From Acidimicrobiales bacterium (GTDB lineage: Bacteria > Actinomycetota > Acidimicrobiia > Acidimicrobiales > AC-14): a DNA stretch of 24,000 nt. The stretch is taken from contig JANMRJ010000542.1 in NCBI GenBank assembly GCA_031370985.1, positions 1-24,000 on the forward strand. Reading direction: 5' to 3'. Positions 1,279-15,028 of this stretch are shown one piece after another. Below the pieces are notes generated by a model. It was given only the letters and a program-made list of their open reading frames with translations. It searched no databases and had not been told where the DNA came from. Every line of letters starts with the position of its first letter. Position 1 is the first letter of the stretch. Made by a program: the position numbers and the translations under genes.

Positions 1279-1979
1279 GCCCGGGTGCCTGCCGTCAAGC
1301 GGCCGTCCCGCATCGCGTAGCGCTGATCGGCGCGCGCCGCGCTCACGGGATCGTGGGTGACGAGGAGGAGGTTCGCTCCGCGCCGGCGGACGGCGCCCAC
1401 CAGGAGCGCCAGGACGCCGGCCGCATTGTCCTCGTCGAGGCTGCCGGTCGGCTCGTCGGCGAGGATCAGCGCCGGATCGATGACGAGGGCGCGGGCGACG
1501 CCCACTCGCTGGCGTTCGCCACCGGAGAGCTCGTCAACTCGGGCGCCGATGACATGACCGAGGCCGACCTCCTCGAGGACGGATCGGGAACGGGCCGTGC
1601 GCTCTTCCTCTGGCACGTTTGCGAGCAGCAGCGGCAGCCCGACGTTCTCGACGACCGGCAGGCTCGCGATCAGGCCGAACGACTGGAAGATGATCCCGAT
1701 TTGACGCTGGCGGAGGCGGGCACGCTCGGCTCCGGACAGCCGCGAGAGGTCATGGCCGAGGACGGTGACCGTTCCGTCATCGGGCGGTTCGAGGCCGGCG
1801 AGAAGGCCGAGTAGGGTCGTCTTGCCCGAGCCCGACGGTCCCTCGATCGCGACGAAGGTTCCGGGCTCGACGGTGAGGTCCACGCGATCGACGGCCACGA
1901 CCGGATCGATCCCGGTTCCGACGTAGCGCCGGGTCAGGCCGATGCACCGGATCACGCTGGTACCGGCGATGACGCTCAT
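1275..1979 (-). CDS. ABC transporter ATP-binding protein (MacB/LolD-like ATPase), second of two
   Basis: 234-aa ORF. Walker A is GPSGSGKTTLL, Q-loop FQ, ABC signature LSGGERQRVGVA, Walker B ILADEPTGSLD and H-loop THD. ATGA overlaps occur at both ends (with 1976..2722 upstream and the permease downstream). Confidence 0.95.
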   Translation of the reverse strand: MSVIAGTSVIRCIGLTRRYVGTGIDPVVAVDRVDLTVEPGTFVAIEGPSGSGKTTLLGLLAGLEPPDDGTVTVLGHDLSRLSGAERARLRQRQIGIIFQSFGLIASLPVVENVGLPLLLANVPEEERTARSRSVLEEVGLGHVIGARVDELSGGERQRVGVARALVIDPALILADEPTGSLDEDNAAGVLALLVGAVRRRGANLLLVTHDPVSAARADQRYAMRDGRLTAGTRA

Positions 1980-7900: not shown

Positions 7901-8334
7901 TGCCCACGATGCGCTTCCCGATCCGCGTCGGCCCGAAGTCGCGGCTGCCGCTTCGCCTTCTGTTCGGCGTCCAGGCCGACGACGCCTGGATCGACATCGG
8001 CGACGGCCACGAGGGCGAGCTCGAGGTCCAGTTCGGCTGGTCCCACTTCCGGACGCCGATGGCCAACATCGCGCGCTGGCAGATCGAGGGCCCATTCCTG
8101 TGGATCACCGCGATCGGCGTCCGGCGCAGCAACCGCCACGGCGACGTCACCTTCGGCGGCAGCCCCCACGGCGGCGTCCGGATCGACTTCACGACCCCCG
8201 TTCACTGGACGATCTTCCATGTTCCGGCGATCTATGTTCCGGCCGACGACCTCGACGGCCTGGCCGCAGAGCTCGAGCGCCGGGGCGTACCCGGGCGTGA
8301 TGTTCGCCGCGGTCAGGGACCGACGCTCGGGTAG
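7900..8334 (+). CDS. Hypothetical protein (144 aa), translationally coupled to cydB
   Basis: The ATG at 7900 overlaps the cydB stop (TGATG). GC3 is very high throughout and the composition is non-repetitive and globular-looking (MPTMRFPIRVGPKSRLPLRLLFGVQADDAWIDIGDGHEGELEVQFGWSHF...). I recognise no motif. The 3' end overlaps the convergent GH18-like gene by 22 nt. Confidence 0.65.
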   Translation: MPTMRFPIRVGPKSRLPLRLLFGVQADDAWIDIGDGHEGELEVQFGWSHFRTPMANIARWQIEGPFLWITAIGVRRSNRHGDVTFGGSPHGGVRIDFTTPVHWTIFHVPAIYVPADDLDGLAAELERRGVPGRDVRRGQGPTLG

Positions 8335-9734
8335 TGCTCGGCGCTCGGGCTCGAGTTGGACCCGGCGCTCGGGCTCGAGCTGGGCCCGGCGTTCGGGCTC
8401 GAGTTGGGCCCGGCGTTCGGGCTCGAGTTGGGCCCGGCGCTCGGGCTCGAGTTGGGCCCGGCGCTCGGGCTCGATCCGCCGCTGGGCGCAGGTCCGATGA
8501 CGTCCGTGGCCATCGACCTCCCGGCCCGGAAGTCGGCGATCAGGGCCGTGTACCCGGGCAGGCCGCGCTCGTAGCCGACCGCCCAGAACCCTGCGCCCGC
8601 GAGGCCGAGGCCGTTGGCGAGGCCCAGCTTCGGTCGGAGGCTTTGCGGTGTGTCGTAGTAGATCGCCCGCCAGGCCTTGCCGTTGGGGATCGCGAGGAAG
8701 GCGACGTCCTCGATCGGGTCGAACGAGGCCGTGATCGACGGATCGAGCAACGTCGCGAGGTTCCGGCGCGGCACCCAGATGTCGCCGCGGCCGGTCTCCG
8801 GCGAGCCCACCGCGGCGCTCGCCGTCGGCCACGACAGGCCGTAGAGCGGCAGCCCGAGCAGCGTCCGTTCGGCCGGCACCCCGGCCGCGGCATACAGCTC
8901 GAGCGACCACGCGATCGATCGTTCGACACCATCGCCACGGGAGATCGGGGCCGAGCCGCCTGGCTGGCTCGTTGCCGTCCGGTAGTCGTAGCCCATGAGA
9001 AAGATCCGATCGGCCCCGGCAAGGTTCGCCGCTGCGGCGAGTACGGCGCCCTGGGGTCCGGCACCGGTCGTCGCGGTGATCGTCGCCTCGGGGTCAGCCG
9101 CTCGGAGCGCCGACCGCAGCCGGCCGAGGAAGGCGCCGTAGGCCGGGATGTCGGAGTCGGCGATCTCTTCGACATCGACCGCGATGCCGTCCACGGAGAG
9201 ACCCGCGCGCAGCCGGACCAGCGAGTCGATCACGCGCTGCTGGAGCGCGTCCGACGCGAACAAGGCCTGATTCCTCGTCCAACCGAAGCTGGTCCAGGTG
9301 ACCTCCACTCGCCTGCCGAGCGCGTGGGCGTCGGCGACGATCGCCTGGCCGACCGGGCCGGCAATCGCCTTGTAGCCGTTCTGGTTCGTCGCGATGTCGC
9401 CCTTGCCGGTGTGGGTCACCGAGAAAAGCGCCACGGTCGTCGTGTCGGTCGCGCGGAGGTGATCTGCGATCGTGCCGTCCATTTCCCAGTACGGGACGAA
9501 GCCGTACACCTCGTGGCCGGGCAGTGGGGGTGCGGCGCTTCGACCGACCGTCGAGCCGGGCCCGCCGCCATCCGCCCCCGGACTGTACGGCGCACCGGGC
9601 GGCAGGGAGGTCAGCGCGAGGATCGAGCCCACGATCGCGACGATCGCGAGCCCGGCGACCGCTCGACCGGCCGGCCCGGGCGGCCATCGCCGTGCCAACC
9701 GTCGCCGCAGTGCTGGGTGAGATCGCCTCTCCAC
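8313..9734 (-). CDS. Glycoside hydrolase family 18-like protein, membrane-anchored, with C-terminal octapeptide repeats
   Basis: 473-aa ORF. The N-terminus has a signal anchor (AVAGLAIVAIVGSILALTSL). The core resembles GH18 (YaaH/YdhD-like): HEVYGFVPYWE, SVDGIAVDVEE (the DGxDxDxE region with the second Asp replaced by Ala and D-x-E retained), LMGYDY, LGLPLYG and GAGFWAVGYE. The C-terminus is (S-P-S/N-A-G-P-N-S)n. The GTG start at 9734 is uncertain. Confidence 0.8.
   Translation of the reverse strand: MERRSHPALRRRLARRWPPGPAGRAVAGLAIVAIVGSILALTSLPPGAPYSPGADGGGPGSTVGRSAAPPLPGHEVYGFVPYWEMDGTIADHLRATDTTTVALFSVTHTGKGDIATNQNGYKAIAGPVGQAIVADAHALGRRVEVTWTSFGWTRNQALFASDALQQRVIDSLVRLRAGLSVDGIAVDVEEIADSDIPAYGAFLGRLRSALRAADPEATITATTGAGPQGAVLAAAANLAGADRIFLMGYDYRTATSQPGGSAPISRGDGVERSIAWSLELYAAAGVPAERTLLGLPLYGLSWPTASAAVGSPETGRGDIWVPRRNLATLLDPSITASFDPIEDVAFLAIPNGKAWRAIYYDTPQSLRPKLGLANGLGLAGAGFWAVGYERGLPGYTALIADFRAGRSMATDVIGPAPSGGSSPSAGPNSSPSAGPNSSPNAGPNSSPNAGPSSSPSAGSNSSPSAEHYPSVGP
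8341..8474. repeat. 24-bp tandem repeat, 5 full copies plus a partial copy (consensus GCGCTCGGGCTCGAGTTGGGCCCG)
   Basis: Read directly. Units lie at 8341-8364, 8365-8388, 8389-8412, 8413-8436 and 8437-8460, with a partial unit at 8461-8474. Copies differ by 1-2 substitutions. The repeat is in frame (8 codons) within the 3' end of the GH18-like gene and encodes SSPSAGPN/SSPNAGPN. Confidence 0.92.
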
Positions 9735-9857
9735 ACTCCCAGTCTGCCGCCTCGGGCCGGATCTGGTGGATGACGAGTCCCGACGAGCATGCCGAATGTG
9801 GCTAAGTCAAGTATTCTCAATTGGCTCGGTCCCGGCGTCGACCGAGGGGAACGCCGG

Positions 9858-10409
9858 ATGCCGGGCACCCCCTCCCTGCATGGAAGGAACGGAACCTTGC
9901 CTGATCGGGCCACCCGAGTCGGCGACAGCCCGGGATCCGGGAGCGACGCGCCCGGGCTGCGCGGGCTGCCCGGGCGGCGCGGGAGTCGCGGCGCCAAGCC
10001 CGAGTTCGGCGCTCAATTCGAAGGCCCGGAGCTCGGTCGCGAGGAGTCCCTGCTCGTCGTCCTGCGCGGAATCGGGGCGATGATGTTCCTGACGACGCAC
10101 CGCGTCATCGTGGCGCGCGACGGCATCGAACGGCGACCGAGGAGCGGTGTCGCCTCCTTCCCGCTCGAACAGATCCGCCACCTTCGCCTCGAGCTCGGCA
10201 GCGGGCCGTCCGGCCGGATCGCCGTCTGGACGGACGCGAGCCAGGAGGCGCTGAGCATGTTCTTCGACGGGCGATCCCTGGATCGCGCCCACAAGCTGAT
10301 CGATGTCGCCAGGCCGCAGATCGCCCGACAGCGACGACGCGGCCCCGGAGATTGGCCGGCCCGTCCCCCGACCGGGCCGGCCGACTCCGGCCCTCGAGAT
10401 CCGGCCTGA
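9858..10409 (+). CDS. Hypothetical protein with bacterial PH-like (YokE/GRAM-like) core (183 aa)
   Basis: This is part of the 9789..10409 ORF. I prefer the ATG at 9858, which is preceded by GAGGGGA 7 nt upstream. The core ESLLVVLRGIGAMMFLTTHRVIVARDG...ASFPLEQIRHLRLELG...GRIAVWTD resembles bacterial PH-like domains. The N- and C-termini are disordered and Gly/Pro/Arg-rich. I chose it over the equal-length antisense ORF 9807..10427 because of composition and the SD. Confidence 0.6.
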   Translation: MPGTPSLHGRNGTLPDRATRVGDSPGSGSDAPGLRGLPGRRGSRGAKPEFGAQFEGPELGREESLLVVLRGIGAMMFLTTHRVIVARDGIERRPRSGVASFPLEQIRHLRLELGSGPSGRIAVWTDASQEALSMFFDGRSLDRAHKLIDVARPQIARQRRRGPGDWPARPPTGPADSGPRDPA

Positions 10410-10428
10410 ACCGCGGACCGCGGTCACA

Positions 10429-10516
10429 GCCGACCGGCATACGCGACAACCGATGATCCTCCGCCCCGGGGTGCCGGGCGTATGACGAGTGGGCGTTGTC
10501 GCGTTGCCCGGTCGGC
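10429..10516. terminator. Long three-tier inverted repeat between convergent genes (probable bidirectional, U-tract-less terminator or structured RNA)
   Basis: Outer stem GCCGACCGG (10429-10437) pairs with CCGGTCGGC (10508-10516). A 3x3 internal loop follows. Inner stem ACGCGACAAC (10441-10450) pairs with GTTGTCGCGT (10495-10504). An apical hairpin spans 10462-10480 (CGCCC(C)GG-GGTG-CCGGGCG). The element sits 20 nt after the PH-like gene stop and 35 nt after the small-ORF stop. Confidence 0.5.
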
Positions 10517-10550
10517 CGTGATCACGATGTCGGGGTGGGATCTCCGAAAT

Positions 10551-10667
10551 TCACTTGGGAATCGGCCCCCCGCCGCCGTCGGCGAGGACCGTTGCCACTG
10601 TGGCCAGGAATGCGGCGGCTGCCAGAATCGCCGAGATGGAAATGGTTCGGGCACGATGGAAGCGCAT
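10551..10667 (-). CDS. Unannotated 38-codon ORF: small secreted pre-peptide (candidate signalling pro-peptide)
   Basis: It falls below the ORF-track size cut-off. The minus strand reads GGAGAAGGAG-CAGACCCC-ATG, a strong SD with an 8-nt spacer. The translation is MRFHRARTISISAILAAAAFLATVATVLADGGGGPIPK followed by TGA. It has a basic n-region (R2, H4, R5, R7), a roughly 21-residue hydrophobic core, a V-L-A signal-peptidase-type site, and a 9-residue tail DGGGGPIPK. An in-frame stop lies 17 codons upstream with no alternative start between, so the ATG is unambiguous. No convincing long ORF covers this region. GC3 is about 74% by hand count, lower than in the neighbouring genes. Confidence 0.5.
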   Translation of the reverse strand: MRFHRARTISISAILAAAAFLATVATVLADGGGGPIPK

Positions 10668-10736
10668 GGGGTCTGCTCCTTCTCCACCCGGGCCCGAGGC
10701 GAGAGGACACGCCGTTCATGGTAGGCGTTGCGGCGA

Positions 10737-10808
10737 GATGCACAAGTATTTAGCGACATTGCAGCCCAAATGGTGCATCGCATGCAAATCAGGCGGAGTC
10801 AATCCGCC
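10737..10808. promoter_or_regulatory. AT-rich divergent promoter/operator region with inverted repeats between small ORF and XRE-TPR regulator
   Basis: The stretch 10735-10804 is about 49% G+C by hand count, against roughly 70% for the window. It has an inverted repeat GATGCAC (10737-10743) / GTGCATC (10773-10779). Four TGCA cores lie at 10739, 10760, 10774 and 10783. GCATGC lies at 10780-10785. A hairpin GGCGGA-gtcaa-TCCGCC spans 10792-10808, just upstream of the regulator start. TATTTA/TAAATA at 10747-10752 is a possible -10 on either strand. Confidence 0.4.
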
Positions 10809-10814
10809 CTTGTC

Positions 10815-12143
10815 ATGGCGCGTATGATCCGGGCCATGACAACTGAAACGACCACCCGCACGCGGAATCGCCCGAGCCTCGCCAAGGAGGACCTCGACCT
10901 CGCCCGCCAGGTCGGCGGTCGCCTGAAGGCCGCTCGGACTCGGTCCGGACTGACCCAGCGCGAGCTGGCCGAGCCGCGCTACACGAAGGCCTACGTCAGC
11001 GCCCTCGAGAACGGCCTGATCAAGCCGTCCATGGCGGCCCTCCGCTTCCTCGCTCGAAAGCTGGGCACGGTGCCGAGCGCCTTCCTGGCCGACGAGGACA
11101 CCCACTGGCAGCGACTCGACGCGGAGCTCCGCCTCGCCGCGGGCGACTGGCAGGCCGCCGCCGACCGGTTCCAGACGATCCTCGACGCGGACCCTGCGGG
11201 CGTCGGGCGAGGCCTGTCGCTCCTCGGACTCGCCGAGGCGAGCTACCGGCTCGGCCTCTCGCGCGCGACCATCGCCAGTGCAGGCGAGGCGGTCGAGCTG
11301 CTGTCGAAGGCCGGCCGCGCGGCGGACGCGATGCGGGCGACCTACTGGCTCGCCGCGGGCCATCACGCGATCGACGATCCCGCCCGCGCGCGGATGCTCT
11401 TCCAGGAGCTCCTGGCCGCGACGTCGGTTGAGCTCAGCGATCCCGACCTCCGGGTCCGGATCCTCGTCGCCCTGGCAACGGTCGAATCGGGCGCCGGCGA
11501 ATCGGCGACCGCGATCGGCCTGCTCGAAGAGGCGCGCTCGATCGGCGCCGACCTCGACGACCGGCGGCGAGCGACGTTGCTTCATTCCCTTGCCCAGTCA
11601 TATCGCCTGTCAGGCGACCTCGAAGGTGCCGTTCGGACCGGGATCGAGAGTCTCGCGTTGTTCCGGTCGGTCGACGCCCGGGCGGAGTCGGCATCGATCG
11701 AGAACGAGCTCGCCATGACGTTCCTCGGGCTTGGTAACCTCGAGGCGGCAGAGCGACACGCCCATGAGTCGCGGCTCGGCATGGAGCATGATCGCGATCA
11801 GTTCCGGCTGGCCGACCTCACCGACACCGAGGCGCGGATCGCCCTGGCCCGTGGCGACCTGGACACAGCCGCCAGTCGCGCCGCGGATGCCGCGGAGATC
11901 GCCGAGAAGCTCGGCAACCAGAAGGCCTTCGTCGACGCCCTGCTCACGATGGCCCGCACCGCGCGTTTGCGGGGCGATCGCGAGCTGGCGACGGCGTCCC
12001 TCGAGCGGGCGGCAGCGGTCGCGGAGACGGGCCCGGCCTTCCGCCTCCGCCTGGTCCTGACGGAGTGGAGCGAGCTCGCCGCGGAGACCGGCGACCTGGC
12101 CCGCGCCTACGAGCTCAGCCGGCGGGCCCTCGCCATCAGCTGA
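10815..12143 (+). CDS. XRE-family helix-turn-helix + tetratricopeptide-repeat (TPR) transcriptional regulator (~442 aa)
   Basis: Taken from the 10728..12143 ORF. The HTH region is LARQVGGRLKAARTRSGLTQRELAEPRYTKAYVSALENGLIKPSMAALRFLARKLGTVPSAFL (about 10899-11090), a classic XRE/Cro-type pattern. The remaining ~340 aa are Ala/Leu-rich helical repeats with TPR signatures (AELRLAAGDWQAAADRFQTIL, LHSLAQSYRLSGDLEGAVRTGIESLALF, LAMTFLGLGNLEAAERHAHESR, IALARGDLDTAASRAADAAEIAEKLG, LTMARTARLRGDRELATASLERAAAVA). The start is uncertain: ATGs at 10815, 10824 and 10836 all lack a clear SD, so the transcript may be leaderless or short-leadered. Confidence 0.88.
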   Translation: MARMIRAMTTETTTRTRNRPSLAKEDLDLARQVGGRLKAARTRSGLTQRELAEPRYTKAYVSALENGLIKPSMAALRFLARKLGTVPSAFLADEDTHWQRLDAELRLAAGDWQAAADRFQTILDADPAGVGRGLSLLGLAEASYRLGLSRATIASAGEAVELLSKAGRAADAMRATYWLAAGHHAIDDPARARMLFQELLAATSVELSDPDLRVRILVALATVESGAGESATAIGLLEEARSIGADLDDRRRATLLHSLAQSYRLSGDLEGAVRTGIESLALFRSVDARAESASIENELAMTFLGLGNLEAAERHAHESRLGMEHDRDQFRLADLTDTEARIALARGDLDTAASRAADAAEIAEKLGNQKAFVDALLTMARTARLRGDRELATASLERAAAVAETGPAFRLRLVLTEWSELAAETGDLARAYELSRRALAIS

Positions 12144-12152
12144 TCGGCGCCC

Positions 12153-12168
12153 CGCCGGCCGGCCGGCG
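12153..12168 (+). terminator. Perfect 16-nt GC palindrome CGCCGGCCGGCCGGCG directly after the regulator stop
   Basis: Read directly. It begins 10 nt after the TGA at 12141-12143. It can form a 6-bp stem with a CCGG loop. No U-tract follows, which is common for high-GC I-shaped terminators. Confidence 0.35.
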
Positions 12169-12535
12169 CTGCCCGCGTCAACGGTCTCGGGCTCAGCCGC
12201 AGAAGTCGAGCACCAGGCGGGTCCGGGTGCCCGAGCGCCAATCGCGAGACCAGGTTCAGGCGATGGACGGGCGGCCCCCCTCGCTCGGAGGGAGCCGGCC
12301 CAGCCGGGCGTCCGCAGCGATTCGAACGGTGGTCGAGTCGAGTGCGTCGCGGATCGCGGGGCACTCGGTCGGGTGATGCGCCACGGACGGTAGGCCGGCC
12401 CCGCCTCTCCGGCCATGCGGCGACGGAGGTGGAGGCCTGCCCGCGGGAAGTCCACCTCAACGATCCTCCGAACGGACGAAGCCTCCGCCGAGTCTCCGTC
12501 GCGTCTTCACAATCGCCCCACATCAGCGGCCCACG

Positions 12536-13006
12536 ATGAGCACGTCGAACCCACGAAGCACACGGAGCACCATCACCATGAACGGTCGAACGTTCGCTCG
12601 AATCCTGCTCGCCATTGTCCTCATCGGCGGCGCCATCGGCATCGGCGTGACCGCCTACAACGCCGGGGTCACCGCCGGTCTCGTCCAGACCGGCCACGCG
12701 GTCGTCGTCGACGGCGGATATGCCGTCGCCCCCGGCGGCGCCTACGTCGGCTATGGCTGGGGCTTCGGCCACGGCGGAGGCTTCTTCGGCTTCCTCGGCG
12801 GGCTGCTCTTCCTCTTTGTCCTGTTCGCCCTGATCCGGGCCGCATTCGGCTTCGGTGGTCATCGTCGCGGCTGGGGCGGTCCCGGCGGCCCCGGCGGCTC
12901 GGGCGGCGACTGGCGACGCGACGCCTGGGAGCAGCGCATCAAGGAGACGCACGACGCCCTCCACCGCGACGCAACCGCTGGTCCGGACAAGCCCGCCGGA
13001 AGCTGA
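12536..13006 (+). CDS. Glycine-rich small membrane protein (hypothetical; 156 aa, or 142 aa from ATG 12578)
   Basis: TM1 is ARILLAIVLIGGAIGIGVTAY. A Gly/Tyr/Ala-rich external segment follows (GYAVAPGGAYVGYGWGFGHGGG). TM2 is FFGFLGGLLFLFVLFALIRAAFGF. The C-terminal tail is Arg/Trp/Gly-rich (GGHRRGWGGPGGPGGSGGDWRRDAWEQRIKETHDALH). GGAG lies 10 nt upstream of the ATG at 12578. The antisense 285-aa ORF (12107..12964) is Arg-rich and is not credible. Confidence 0.7.
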   Translation: MSTSNPRSTRSTITMNGRTFARILLAIVLIGGAIGIGVTAYNAGVTAGLVQTGHAVVVDGGYAVAPGGAYVGYGWGFGHGGGFFGFLGGLLFLFVLFALIRAAFGFGGHRRGWGGPGGPGGSGGDWRRDAWEQRIKETHDALHRDATAGPDKPAGS

Positions 13007-13010
13007 TCCC

Positions 13011-13083
13011 GACGCCCGGCGGGCCGGGCGTCCTCCCTCCCCTCCTTTCCGCGGCGGCCGGGCCCCCCAAGGCCCGGCGCCGC
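13011..13083 (+). terminator. Two tandem GC-rich hairpins between the glycine-rich protein gene and the response regulator
   Basis: Hairpin 1 pairs GACGCCCGG (13011-13019) with CCGGGCGTC (13024-13032), giving 9 bp with loop CGGG, followed by CTCCCTCCCCTCCTTTCC. Hairpin 2 pairs GCGGCG(G)CCGGGCC (13051-13064) with GGCCCGGCGCCGC (13071-13083), giving 13 bp with one bulged G and loop CCCCAA, followed by TTCTGC. Confidence 0.5.
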
Positions 13084-13109
13084 TTCTGCAACCCCTAGGA
13101 TGAGCCGCG

Positions 13110-13802
13110 ATGAAGACGATCCTCGTGGTCGACGACGAACCAAAGATCGCGGACCTGGCGCGCGACTATCTCGAGCACGCCGGATACACGGTCCGGACCG
13201 CACGTGATGGCGAGGCGGCGCTGACCGCCGTCCGGCGCGATCGGCCCGACCTCGTCGTCCTCGACCTTGGCCTGCCGGGCATCGACGGCCTCGACGTCAC
13301 GAGGGCGATCCGGCGCGATTCGAACCTGCCGGTGATCATGCTCACCGCCCGCGATGACGAGCTGGACAAGCTCATCGGCCTCGAGCTCGGGGCTGACGAC
13401 TACCTGACCAAGCCGTTCAGTCCGCGCGAGCTGGTCGCCCGCGTGCGTGCGGTCCTGCGCCGGGTCGACGCCGCGTCCGAGCCCGACGCGGTCTCGCTGA
13501 TCCGGGCCGGTGACCTGACGCTCGACCTGCCCCGGATGTGGGCCGACCTGGCGGGCCGGACGATCGACCTGACCCCCACCGAGTTCGCGCTGCTCGCGGC
13601 CATGGCCCGTCAGCCCGGCCGGATCTTCACCCGCTCGCAGCTCCTCGACGCCGTTCACGGGGTCGCGTTCGAATCATACGAGCGGGCGATCGATACGCAT
13701 ATCAAGAACCTCCGCCGGAAGCTTGAGCCCGACCCTCGCCGACCTGTCCACGTCCTGACGGTGTACGGCGTCGGCTACCGGTTCGCGGACGAGCGGCCGT
13801 GA
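13110..13802 (+). CDS. OmpR/PhoB-family response regulator (230 aa)
   Basis: The N-terminus is MKTILVVDDEPKIADLARDYLEHAGY. The receiver shows DLVVLDLGLPGIDG and KPF. The winged helix shows LTPTEFALLAAMARQPGRIFTRSQL...VYGVGYRF. AGGA lies 9 nt upstream of the start. The stop overlaps the kinase start (GTGA). Confidence 0.95.
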   Translation: MKTILVVDDEPKIADLARDYLEHAGYTVRTARDGEAALTAVRRDRPDLVVLDLGLPGIDGLDVTRAIRRDSNLPVIMLTARDDELDKLIGLELGADDYLTKPFSPRELVARVRAVLRRVDAASEPDAVSLIRAGDLTLDLPRMWADLAGRTIDLTPTEFALLAAMARQPGRIFTRSQLLDAVHGVAFESYERAIDTHIKNLRRKLEPDPRRPVHVLTVYGVGYRFADERP

Positions 13803-15028
13803 CCGACGGCCCGCCCGATCGGGCGGGCGACGGCCCGGCGGACGGGCGGTCGGCCGGTCCCGGACGGCACCGCGGAGCGCGACGGGGAGGCCGCGCACGC
13901 GGCGGATGGGATCGGCGCTGGAGTGCCGGTCCGCGCCCGGCCTGGCTGCCCGACGAGGAACCCTGGCCGCCGCATCGGCGGCGGCCGTGGCGCGGGTTCG
14001 GGTGCCTCTTCGGATTCCTGTTCCTGGCCGGCGTCCTCGGCCTGCTGTCGATCGCGACGACCGTCATCGGGCGAATCGCGGAGGCGCCCGGTCCGTTCGG
14101 GCTCGTCGTGCGGATCGCCACGGCCGGTCTCGTGATCGGAGTGGTCCTCGCGCTTGCCCGGACGGCCCGCGCGATCCGTGGCTCGGGAACCGTCCTTGAC
14201 GCGCTCGTCGATCAGGCCGGACGAGTCGAGGCCGGCGACTACAGCGCCCGGGTCGATACGAGCGGCGCCGTCCCGATCCCGGTCCGCGGGCTCGCGCGCG
14301 GCTTCAACACGATGGCCGCCCGGCTCCAGGCCGACGAGGCGCAGCGCCGGACGCTCCTCGCCGACGTGACCCATGAGCTGCGGACGCCGCTCGCGGTCGT
14401 CCAGGGCAGCGTCGAAGCCATCCTCGACGGGATCCACCCGGCGGACGAGACGCACCTGTCGGCCATCCTCGAGGAGACACGCATCCTCGACCGCCTGATC
14501 GAAGACCTCCGGACCCTCGCATTGTCCGAGTCCGGCGCGCTGTCCCTCCATCGGGAGCCGACCGACCTCGGCGTCCTCGCGACCGACGCGACGACGTCGT
14601 TCGGCGCGACTGCGGCAACGGCCGGCGTGGAGCTCAGCGCTCACGTCGACGACGACCTGCCGCTGCTCGATGTCGATCCGGTCCGGATCCGCGAGGTGAT
14701 CGGCAACCTCGTCGCGAATGCCCTGCGCCACACCCCGTCGGGCGGACGGATCTCGATCGAGGCGCGCCTGATCCACGAGGCACGACCGGCGACGCGCCCG
14801 TGGGTCGAGATCGTCGTCCGCGACACCGGCTCGGGCATCGACCCGGAGCTCCTACCCCACGTCTTCGATCGGTTCGCCCGCGGCGCCGGCTCCACGGGCA
14901 GCGGCCTGGGCCTGTCGATCGCACGAGGGCTGGTGGAGCTGCATGGCGGGACGATCGCTGCGTCGAGCCCGGTCGGCGGCGGCGCGGAGATCCGGATCCA
15001 GCTGCCGGTCGAGGCAGCGGAGGCCTGA
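13799..15028 (+). CDS. Sensor histidine kinase, intramembrane-sensing type with HAMP (409 aa)
   Basis: H-box [16 protein letters not shown]-box [11 protein letters not shown]1 DTGSGI and G2 GSGLGLSIA are present. Two TM helices ([25 protein letters not shown] and [19 protein letters not shown]) are joined by only about 10 residues. They are preceded by a roughly 65-aa Arg/Pro/Gly/Trp-rich cytoplasmic extension. The GTG start at 13799 overlaps the RR stop. Confidence 0.9.

Follow-up and report, generated by a model that had tools for sequence, protein, structure and literature searches.

Whether a divergent pair of genes can form a peptide signaling system of the RRNPP kind outside the Bacillota is the question raised by positions 10551–12143 of contig JANMRJ010000542.1 (assembly GCA_031370985.1), of which the first 24,000 nucleotides, hereafter the window, were analyzed. 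The pair consists of a small open reading frame (ORF) of 38 codons on the minus strand and, on the plus strand, the gene of a regulator in which a helix-turn-helix (HTH) domain is followed by tetratricopeptide repeats (TPRs). An earlier note on this DNA had read the two as a candidate cassette resembling RRNPP or Rgg-SHP systems. The two-gene module itself is established here as real and co-inherited. What we infer beyond that, with moderate confidence, is that it is an RRNPP-like peptide signaling module of a monoderm-type member of the Chloroflexota (Candidatus Limnocylindria).

A small gene linked to an HTH-TPR regulator

The small ORF (10551–10667, minus strand) comprises 38 codons and a stop, and encodes MRFHRARTISISAILAAAAFLATVATVLA-DGGGGPIPK, with a predicted cut before the aspartate. 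Its ATG lies 8 nt downstream of the near-consensus Shine-Dalgarno (SD) sequence GGAGAAGGAG (10676–10685, minus strand), and the gap to the regulator gene is 147 bp when counted from the ATG at 10815, or 168 bp from the ATG at 10836. The divergent ORF, its distance of 147 bp from the former start and its SD sequence with an 8-nt spacer are all present as the earlier note had described them. At the GC content of the 24-kb window (70.6%) an open frame of 38 codons is no proof of a gene, and 88 loci with relatives of the regulator (43–89% identity), taken from genome and metagenome collections, were therefore compared. A divergent ORF of 36–41 codons and of the same design was found in 71 of the 72 loci in which the sequence 5' of the regulator exceeds 300 nt, at a distance of 126–392 nt; the frame, whose loss or disruption beside orthologous regulators had been envisaged as a point against the cassette, is kept. 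The sole exception is L059, where positions 1204–1374 hold no peptide ORF and a co-directional 399-aa ORF ends 170 nt before the regulator. An AGGAG-type ribosome-binding site stands at the same place in every copy of the small ORF (70 of 70 loci), 5–9 nt ahead of an ATG or GTG. When a profile of the peptide was run against the six-frame translation of 490 kb, exactly one match per locus was obtained, always in the divergent position.

Pairwise differences between copies of the small ORF amount to 0.32/0.22/0.55 by codon position, and the ratio of nonsynonymous to synonymous substitution rates (dN/dS, Nei-Gojobori) is 0.30–0.45, values that in such a comparison of sequences point to a gene that is translated and kept by purifying selection. 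The description of the ORF as unannotated needs amending, as P0122, present in NCBI and JGI records as 'hypothetical protein', is identical to the peptide of the window. A profile search of protein databases with the peptide returned 191 clusters, all of them 'hypothetical protein' and none with a Pfam family; the gene has therefore been overlooked and is not invisible.

The linkage of the small gene to the regulator gene persists where the surroundings change. Relatives with at least 66% identity share full synteny, comprising a GH18 enzyme, a 206-aa protein, the peptide, the regulator, a Gly-rich membrane protein, a response regulator and a histidine kinase. The pair is kept with different flanks in a group of 57–63% identity, and nothing is shared except the pair in a group of 43–47% identity. 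Two distant peptides that were looked up independently again lie divergently beside HTH-TPR genes. The peptide gene is genetically locked, in divergent orientation, to an HTH-TPR gene in at least three genomic contexts. A paralogous HTH-TPR subfamily, also from Limnocylindria and 31% identical, served as a negative control: located between glpX and folD, it lacks a peptide ORF, and the peptide is therefore restricted to the present receptor lineage. The paralogues were examined at L092 (4001–5356) and L094 (4001–5359), and one paralogue, P0483, carries the automatic name 'quorum sensing regulator NprR' at JGI.

The regulator is encoded by the plus-strand ORF that ends at 12143, which has a GC content at third codon positions (GC3) of 0.86; the GC content by codon position was used to pick real genes. 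The product of 10815–12143 matches the Pfam models HTH_31 (aa 32–86, E 1.6e-8), HTH_3 (E 8e-7) and TPR_12 (E 2.1e-14), and has more than 1288 homologues in databases. An AlphaFold2 (AF2) model based on 65 homologues, with a mean predicted local distance difference test (pLDDT) score of 88 and values mostly above 90 across the TPR region, shows an N-terminal HTH followed by 18 helices, corresponding to approximately nine TPR-like pairs (residues 96–440; 11100–12134, plus strand), a TPR-like superhelix to which TPR_12 and Foldseek also point. The HTH is of the XRE/Cro type (aa 32–87 in the 442-aa numbering; 10908–11075, plus strand), and was recognized by HTH_31, HTH_3 and, through the HTH of PlcR, by a profile search of the PDB. 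The regulator contains no hydrophobic segment (maximum hydropathy 1.22) and is therefore predicted to be a cytoplasmic protein.

The domains of the HTH-TPR protein of about 442 aa reported earlier are thus those found by Pfam and AF2; its length has to be revised. Conservation among the loci does not extend to the ATG at 10815, and in L007 and L023 the intergenic alignment shows an in-frame stop after it. All loci of the close group have instead an ATG or GTG 6–8 nt past the nearly invariant GCGTATGATCC. For the former two reasons we moved the start from 10815 to 10836, and the regulator gene (10836–12143, plus strand) probably encodes 435 aa. A near-palindrome of 33 bp at 10810–10842 (TTGTCATGGCGCGTAT / ATCCGGGCCATGACAA) spans the -10 region and start codon of the regulator gene; inspected by eye in L001 only, it seemed not to be conserved there.

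Anatomy of the peptide and the shared control region

Statistics on the peptide family were drawn from 104 distinct members. Their N-termini carry two to four R/K residues, and in most members 22 mostly hydrophobic residues lie between the last R/K and the cut; the peptide of the window reaches a maximum 19-aa hydropathy of 2.31. Residue -1 is Ala in 100% of the members and residue -3 is mostly V or A. The basic n-region, hydrophobic core, V-x-A site and nine-residue tail that had been noticed in the single sequence recur in most of the family. In the window, aa 1–29 (10581–10667, minus strand), with the basic n-region, the 22-residue hydrophobic stretch and V-L-A, are predicted to form a Sec-type signal peptide, and DGGGGPIPK (10554–10580, minus strand) would be the exported nonapeptide, in line with the tail pattern of the family. 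The leader appears to have all the hallmarks of a Sec signal peptide cut by signal peptidase I, and cleavage would take place behind the invariant alanine. Export by the twin-arginine translocation (Tat) pathway was considered and rejected, as most n-regions read H-R-A-R and not twin arginine.

The tail is nine residues long in approximately 95% of the family and follows the motif [D/E/G]-[G/S]-x-x-x-P-[I/F/Y/L/V]-P-[K/R/H]; approximately 89 distinct tails occur among the 104 peptides. Nonsynonymous diversity (pN) is zero at the -1 Ala, where synonymous diversity (pS) is about 0.5, and likewise zero at Pro6 and Pro8 of the tail, with pS values of 0.3–0.7 for these three columns. Tail positions 3–5 have a pN of about 0.5–0.6, near pS and almost neutral. 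Near-identical leaders may carry unlike tails, as in L023 and L024 (DGAGGPIPR vs. GGIPGPIPR) and in L017 and L018 (EGGPVPYPK vs. EGGPGPLPK). In L019 (about 1640–1684, plus strand), L020, L029, L035 and L083 the convergent neighbor of the peptide gene ends in a hydrophobic helix and 'AADGGGLISR', resembling the 'LADGGAGPIPK' of the peptide; the copy of this neighbor in the window (9789–10409) has no such ending.

The region between the two genes is relatively AT-rich and palindrome-rich, as had been noted before, with several inverted repeats and a GC content of 0.61 that drops to 0.56 over the 120 nt at its center (the whole window has 0.706). An alignment of 31 intergenic regions contains five conserved blocks, namely the SD sequence with an extended block of the 5' untranslated region (5'UTR), CCTACCATG, AATACTTG, a GTCAA-N6-CTTG box and GCGTATGATCC. 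From the conservation of CCTACCATG in the 31 loci, TACCAT (10718–10723, minus strand) is the probable -10 hexamer of the peptide promoter, with a transcription start predicted near 10711 (minus strand), and AATACTTG (10743–10750, minus strand), at least 90% conserved in the intergenic alignment of the close group, would lie in its -35 region. The nearly invariant GCGTATGATCC contains TATGAT (10823–10828, plus strand), the probable -10 hexamer of the regulator promoter. Because this hexamer is placed only 7 nt before the ATG at 10836, and because no SD sequence precedes that ATG, the regulator mRNA is probably leaderless. A sigma-70 consensus scan found no site.

The GTCAA-N6-CTTG box (10798–10812, plus strand), which contains the dyad TCAA-N7-TTG(A) and covers the -35 region of the regulator gene, is a candidate operator, and the direction in which it would regulate is likewise conjectural. 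Exact copies occur in 52 of 94 fetched loci, mostly just 5' of the regulator start; the loci with a box include members of the 57–63% group and two of the 43–47% group, and some loci have a second, inverted copy near the peptide promoter. The box occurs once in the 24-kb window, which is not significant by itself, and no member of a regulon was therefore identified within these 24 kb.

Comparison with RRNPP systems and other readings of the pair

RRNPP systems have been given an operational signature that consists of a small propeptide, Sec export, a receptor of 250–500 aa, TPRs and direct adjacency; the propeptide may range from 10 to 100 aa, the intergenic distance from -60 to 400 bp, and export is either Sec/SPI (by SignalP) or SHP-like (PMC10075063). 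The present regulator has 435 aa, 18 TPR helices and a TPR_12 match at E 2.1e-14; it is predicted to be cytoplasmic (maximum hydropathy 1.22) and carries its XRE-type HTH at the N-terminus (aa 32–87). The peptide has 38 aa and is encoded at a distance of 168 bp, with 126–392 nt in 71 of 72 loci. Four of the five features are thus present, and the fifth, Sec export, is predicted from rule-of-thumb features, i.e., two to four R/K residues, a 22-residue hydrophobic stretch, Ala at -1 in 100% of members and V/A at -3. The pair looks RRNPP-like on every feature that sequence allows to be tested, and we do not file it as a member of the family: membership by descent is not claimed, since no RRNPP-specific model was matched, PlcR and RapH were reached over the HTH only and weakly, respectively, and the best fold matches include no RRNPP receptor. 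Of the RRNPP or Rgg-SHP-like cassette proposed earlier, the layout and the co-inheritance of the pair (71 of 72 loci) stand; homology to the RRNPP receptors was not detected by Pfam, NCBIfam or PDB sequence search.

Several observations weigh against peptide signaling through this regulator. The models RNPP_C, Rgg_C, ComR_TPR and AimR were not matched by it in Pfam and NCBIfam at E ≤ 1, and a profile search of the PDB reached PlcR over the HTH only (E 8.6e-4) and RapH weakly (E 4e-3). The 50 top-ranking PDB structures in the Foldseek search include no RRNPP receptor, and Foldseek of viral structures returned generic repeat proteins only, none of them named AimR. Neither an oligopeptide permease gene nor a processing protease gene was found in the 24-kb window. 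The GC3 of the small ORF (approximately 0.70–0.75) is below that of the neighboring genes (0.86–0.90), and the hydrophobic stretch of its product, with 22 residues, is long enough for a membrane anchor. The C-terminal P-x-P-basic sequence is common to the whole family, and could stem from a general demand of processing or structure and not from the specificity of the receptors. Co-variation between tail and receptor, measured as normalized mutual information with the signal-peptide columns as control for phylogeny, did not rise above that control in 47 unique pairs (largest excess 0.07).

The best Foldseek matches in the PDB were LGN/Pins, consensus TPR and OGT (E approximately 1e-10, target-normalized TM 0.7–0.78). 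A particular likeness of the TPR domain to the folds of RRNPP receptors is not borne out by these matches, and the possibility that it would model as a generic scaffold is realized in part, as a canonical TPR superhelix is what was modeled. LGN binds extended peptides along its inner groove. We count it in favor of a peptide receptor that the predicted fold is matched best by TPR domains whose groove accommodates extended peptides (LGN/Pins). The resemblance to LGN/Pins, a eukaryotic protein, and to the designed consensus TPRs, the closest solved folds, is one of fold class only; LGN/Pins are eukaryotic scaffolds that have neither an HTH nor a signaling-peptide partner.

Among known systems, NprR-NprX and PlcR-PapR of the Bacillus cereus group share with the present pair a cytoplasmic receptor in which TPRs follow an XRE-type HTH at the N-terminus, and an adjacent small gene for a product with a Sec-type leader and a C-terminal active part, both of which are predicted here. 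NprR is also similar in size to the regulator and has approximately nine repeats. Homology to these receptors is however not detectable past the HTH, and the TPRs of the regulator are canonical whereas theirs are degenerate. The genes are divergent here and co-directional there, no pro-region separates the leader from the tail of about nine residues, the tail motif [D/E]G-xxx-P-x-P-[K/R] does not resemble those of known pheromones, and the host phylum is Chloroflexota. The divergent arrangement of regulator and peptide genes around a shared intergenic control region with operator-like boxes recalls Rgg-SHP, PrgX-PrgQ and TprA-PhrA. Sec leaders are absent from SHP and PrgQ, which rely on PptAB/Eep (PMC10075063), and the regulator, unlike Rgg, does not match the Rgg C-terminal domain family. 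The arbitrium system of Bacillus phages (AimR-AimP) resembles the pair in its HTH-TPR receptor, in a pre-peptide that measures about 40 aa, in a signal peptide and a short C-terminal signal (both predicted for the present pair) and in the many peptide variants among relatives; it is phage-borne, whereas the present locus is chromosomal and syntenic across genomes.

If the pair does signal, the pre-peptide would be exported by Sec and cut after V/A-x-A, freeing a nonapeptide that is perhaps trimmed further. The peptide would build up with cell density, be re-imported by an oligopeptide permease encoded elsewhere, and bind to the regulator in the groove on the concave side of its TPR superhelix. 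Binding would alter the occupancy of the GTCAA-N6-CTTG box by an HTH dimer, and this occupancy would set how strongly the peptide gene, the regulator gene and a further regulon are expressed. The tail variants seen in close relatives would serve as pherotypes, and complementarity between the 5'UTR and the region 3' of the small ORF may add post-transcriptional control.

In the literature searched, RRNPP(A) signaling, in which a cytoplasmic TPR transcription factor reads a secreted oligopeptide, is regarded as limited to the Bacillota and their mobile elements: a large-scale detector study scanned Firmicutes and viruses only (PMC10075063), and a structural phylogeny of the family covers the Bacillota only (PMC12700828). 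No paper on RRNPP systems or quorum sensing in Limnocylindria was found in that literature. We tentatively suggest, at somewhat less than an even chance, that the pair represents cytoplasmic-receptor peptide quorum sensing outside the Bacillota, as an independent (convergent or anciently diverged) invention of soil Chloroflexota with a canonical nine-repeat TPR factor, a Sec-released nonapeptide and dozens of pherotypes. Such signaling would extend the taxonomic range of peptide quorum sensing into an abundant, uncultured soil class of the Chloroflexota, and the tail variants would partition uncultured populations of Limnocylindria as pherotypes. With its regular TPRs the receptor would be expected to lend itself readily to modeling and engineering, and the approximately 90 natural peptide variants with their cognate receptors offer a test of how signaling specificity evolves.

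The alternative that survives best, although we consider it unlikely, is that the peptide is regulated cargo. The HTH-TPR protein would then control transcription only and bind another partner with its TPR domain, and the exported peptide would act extracellularly or be perceived by another sensor such as a membrane histidine kinase. In favor of this, TPR domains serve generically in protein interactions, no co-variation between tail and receptor was detected in the 47 pairs, and the loci of the close group have genes for an OmpR-type response regulator and for a histidine kinase just downstream. These two-component genes are however gone from the neighborhoods of the 57–63% and 43–47% groups while the pair stays, and it is specifically this TPR regulator that is kept together with the peptide, the paralogous regulator having none.

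Less probable still is a membrane tether, in which an uncleaved 38-aa product, with its N-terminus inside and its tail outside, would sequester or modulate the regulator through its basic end in the manner of an anti-sigma factor. The 22-residue hydrophobic stretch (hydropathy 2.31) fits a transmembrane helix and the basic N-terminus is conserved within subgroups, but the cytoplasmic part would comprise only about seven residues and differs between subgroups, and the most constrained motif lies in the extracellular tail. The invariant -1 Ala and the near-invariant V/A at -3, both under strong purifying selection, fit a peptidase site better than an anchor.

Structure around the small gene, its neighborhood and the host

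A strong structured element was found directly 3' of the small ORF, as the earlier note had seen. It is a long imperfect hairpin at 10419–10526, between the small ORF and the convergent gene of the 206-aa protein upstream, with a folding energy of -76.6 kcal/mol (z = -3.8) and arms of 32 nt that are 81% complementary. Comparable hairpins occur in most homologous loci, and the element is a probable terminator or 3' stabilizer; a terminator consensus scan did not find a U-tract terminator at the hairpin. An Rfam scan of 9500–12500, which includes the hairpin, gave sub-threshold noise only.

The small ORF is in addition bracketed by an inverted repeat, the 5'UTR arm of which, UCCUCUCGCC (10698–10707, minus strand), is complementary to the 3' arm GGGCGGAGGA (10457–10466, minus strand) in the loop of the hairpin. 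Among loci L001–L083 the consensus of the 10-bp repeat is UCCUC(G/A/U)CGCC in the 5'UTR vs. GGCG(C/U/A)GAGGA at 50–140 nt past the stop. Generic duplex energies between the 5'UTR and the 3' region (median z -1.5) are uninformative in sequence of 70% GC, and pairs specific to the arms were therefore counted. In alignment A4 (18 loci) 93.3% of the cells pair, vs. 88.1 ± 1.0 in shuffles (0 of 500 reach the observed value), controls with slid arms give 36–56% pairing, and one arm pair shows compensatory changes (GC:11, AU:4, UG:2, UA:1). The arms were picked by similarity to the consensus and six loci were dropped, so that the pairing is suggestive only. The repeat may represent long-range pairing between the 5' and 3' ends of the mRNA, or twin DNA sites. 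A local hairpin in the 5'UTR that would sequester the SD sequence was rejected, with an RNAalifold energy of -5.9 kcal/mol and zero compensatory pairs.

This complementarity bears on a third alternative, a type I toxin following the logic of hok, which we regard as very unlikely. The small ORF would encode a hydrophobic toxin, its mRNA would be kept inert by a fold-back of the 5' on the 3' end, and the XRE-family neighbor would be a repressor. A single hydrophobic helix in a product of 36–41 aa, the conserved 5'UTR-3' complementarity with compensatory changes and the strong structure after the ORF agree with such a scheme. The n-region, h-region, AxA and conserved Pro-rich tail are, on the other hand, those of a secretion signal and not of a pore-forming toxin of the usual kind, the scan of 9500–12500 revealed neither an antisense RNA nor an Rfam family, and a hypervariable tail center next to a fixed cleavage site is better explained by a signal than by a toxin. 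TPR regulators of 435 aa are, to our knowledge, not among the known types of antitoxin. The least probable alternative, a precursor of a ribosomally synthesized and post-translationally modified peptide (RiPP) or a leader peptide, whose product would be modified by enzymes with the TPR protein as biosynthetic scaffold or regulator, is suggested by a short core rich in Gly and Pro and by NCBIfam, where the TPR region weakly matches a cyclophane RiPP TPR protein at E 8.6e-4, well short of the cut-off. We regard it as highly improbable: in none of the three contexts is a gene for a modifying enzyme, protease or transporter conserved beside the pair, and the leader is of the Sec type and not a RiPP recognition leader.

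The best named relatives of the regulator are all from metagenome-assembled genomes (MAGs) of Candidatus Limnocylindrales, Limnocylindria or Chloroflexi. Judged from these relatives, the host is a member of Candidatus Limnocylindria (Chloroflexota) and not the Actinomycetota-like organism that had been assumed. One locus, L002 (DATNBW010000316.1), belongs to a MAG labeled Verrucomicrobiia, yet is fully syntenic with the Limnocylindrales loci, and its label is probably a binning error.

Downstream of the regulator, positions 12536–15028 encode the Gly-rich membrane protein (156 aa), the OmpR-type response regulator and a HAMP histidine kinase; these genes could belong to the regulon, and are syntenic in the close group (at least 66% identity) only. 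In a single distant locus (L090, 4986–6302, minus strand) a Peptidase_S8 gene of the subtilisin type lies directly downstream of the regulator, and its product is a possible processing protease. Two further minus-strand ORFs, 9807–10427 and 10105–10449, which overlie the gene upstream, were set aside as non-coding by their codon-position GC pattern. The GH18-family gene (8313–9734, minus strand) contains in its C-terminal part a 24-nt tandem repeat of 6.2 copies (8325–8474, 92% matching), which encodes a repeated octapeptide rich in Ser, Pro, Gly and Asn.

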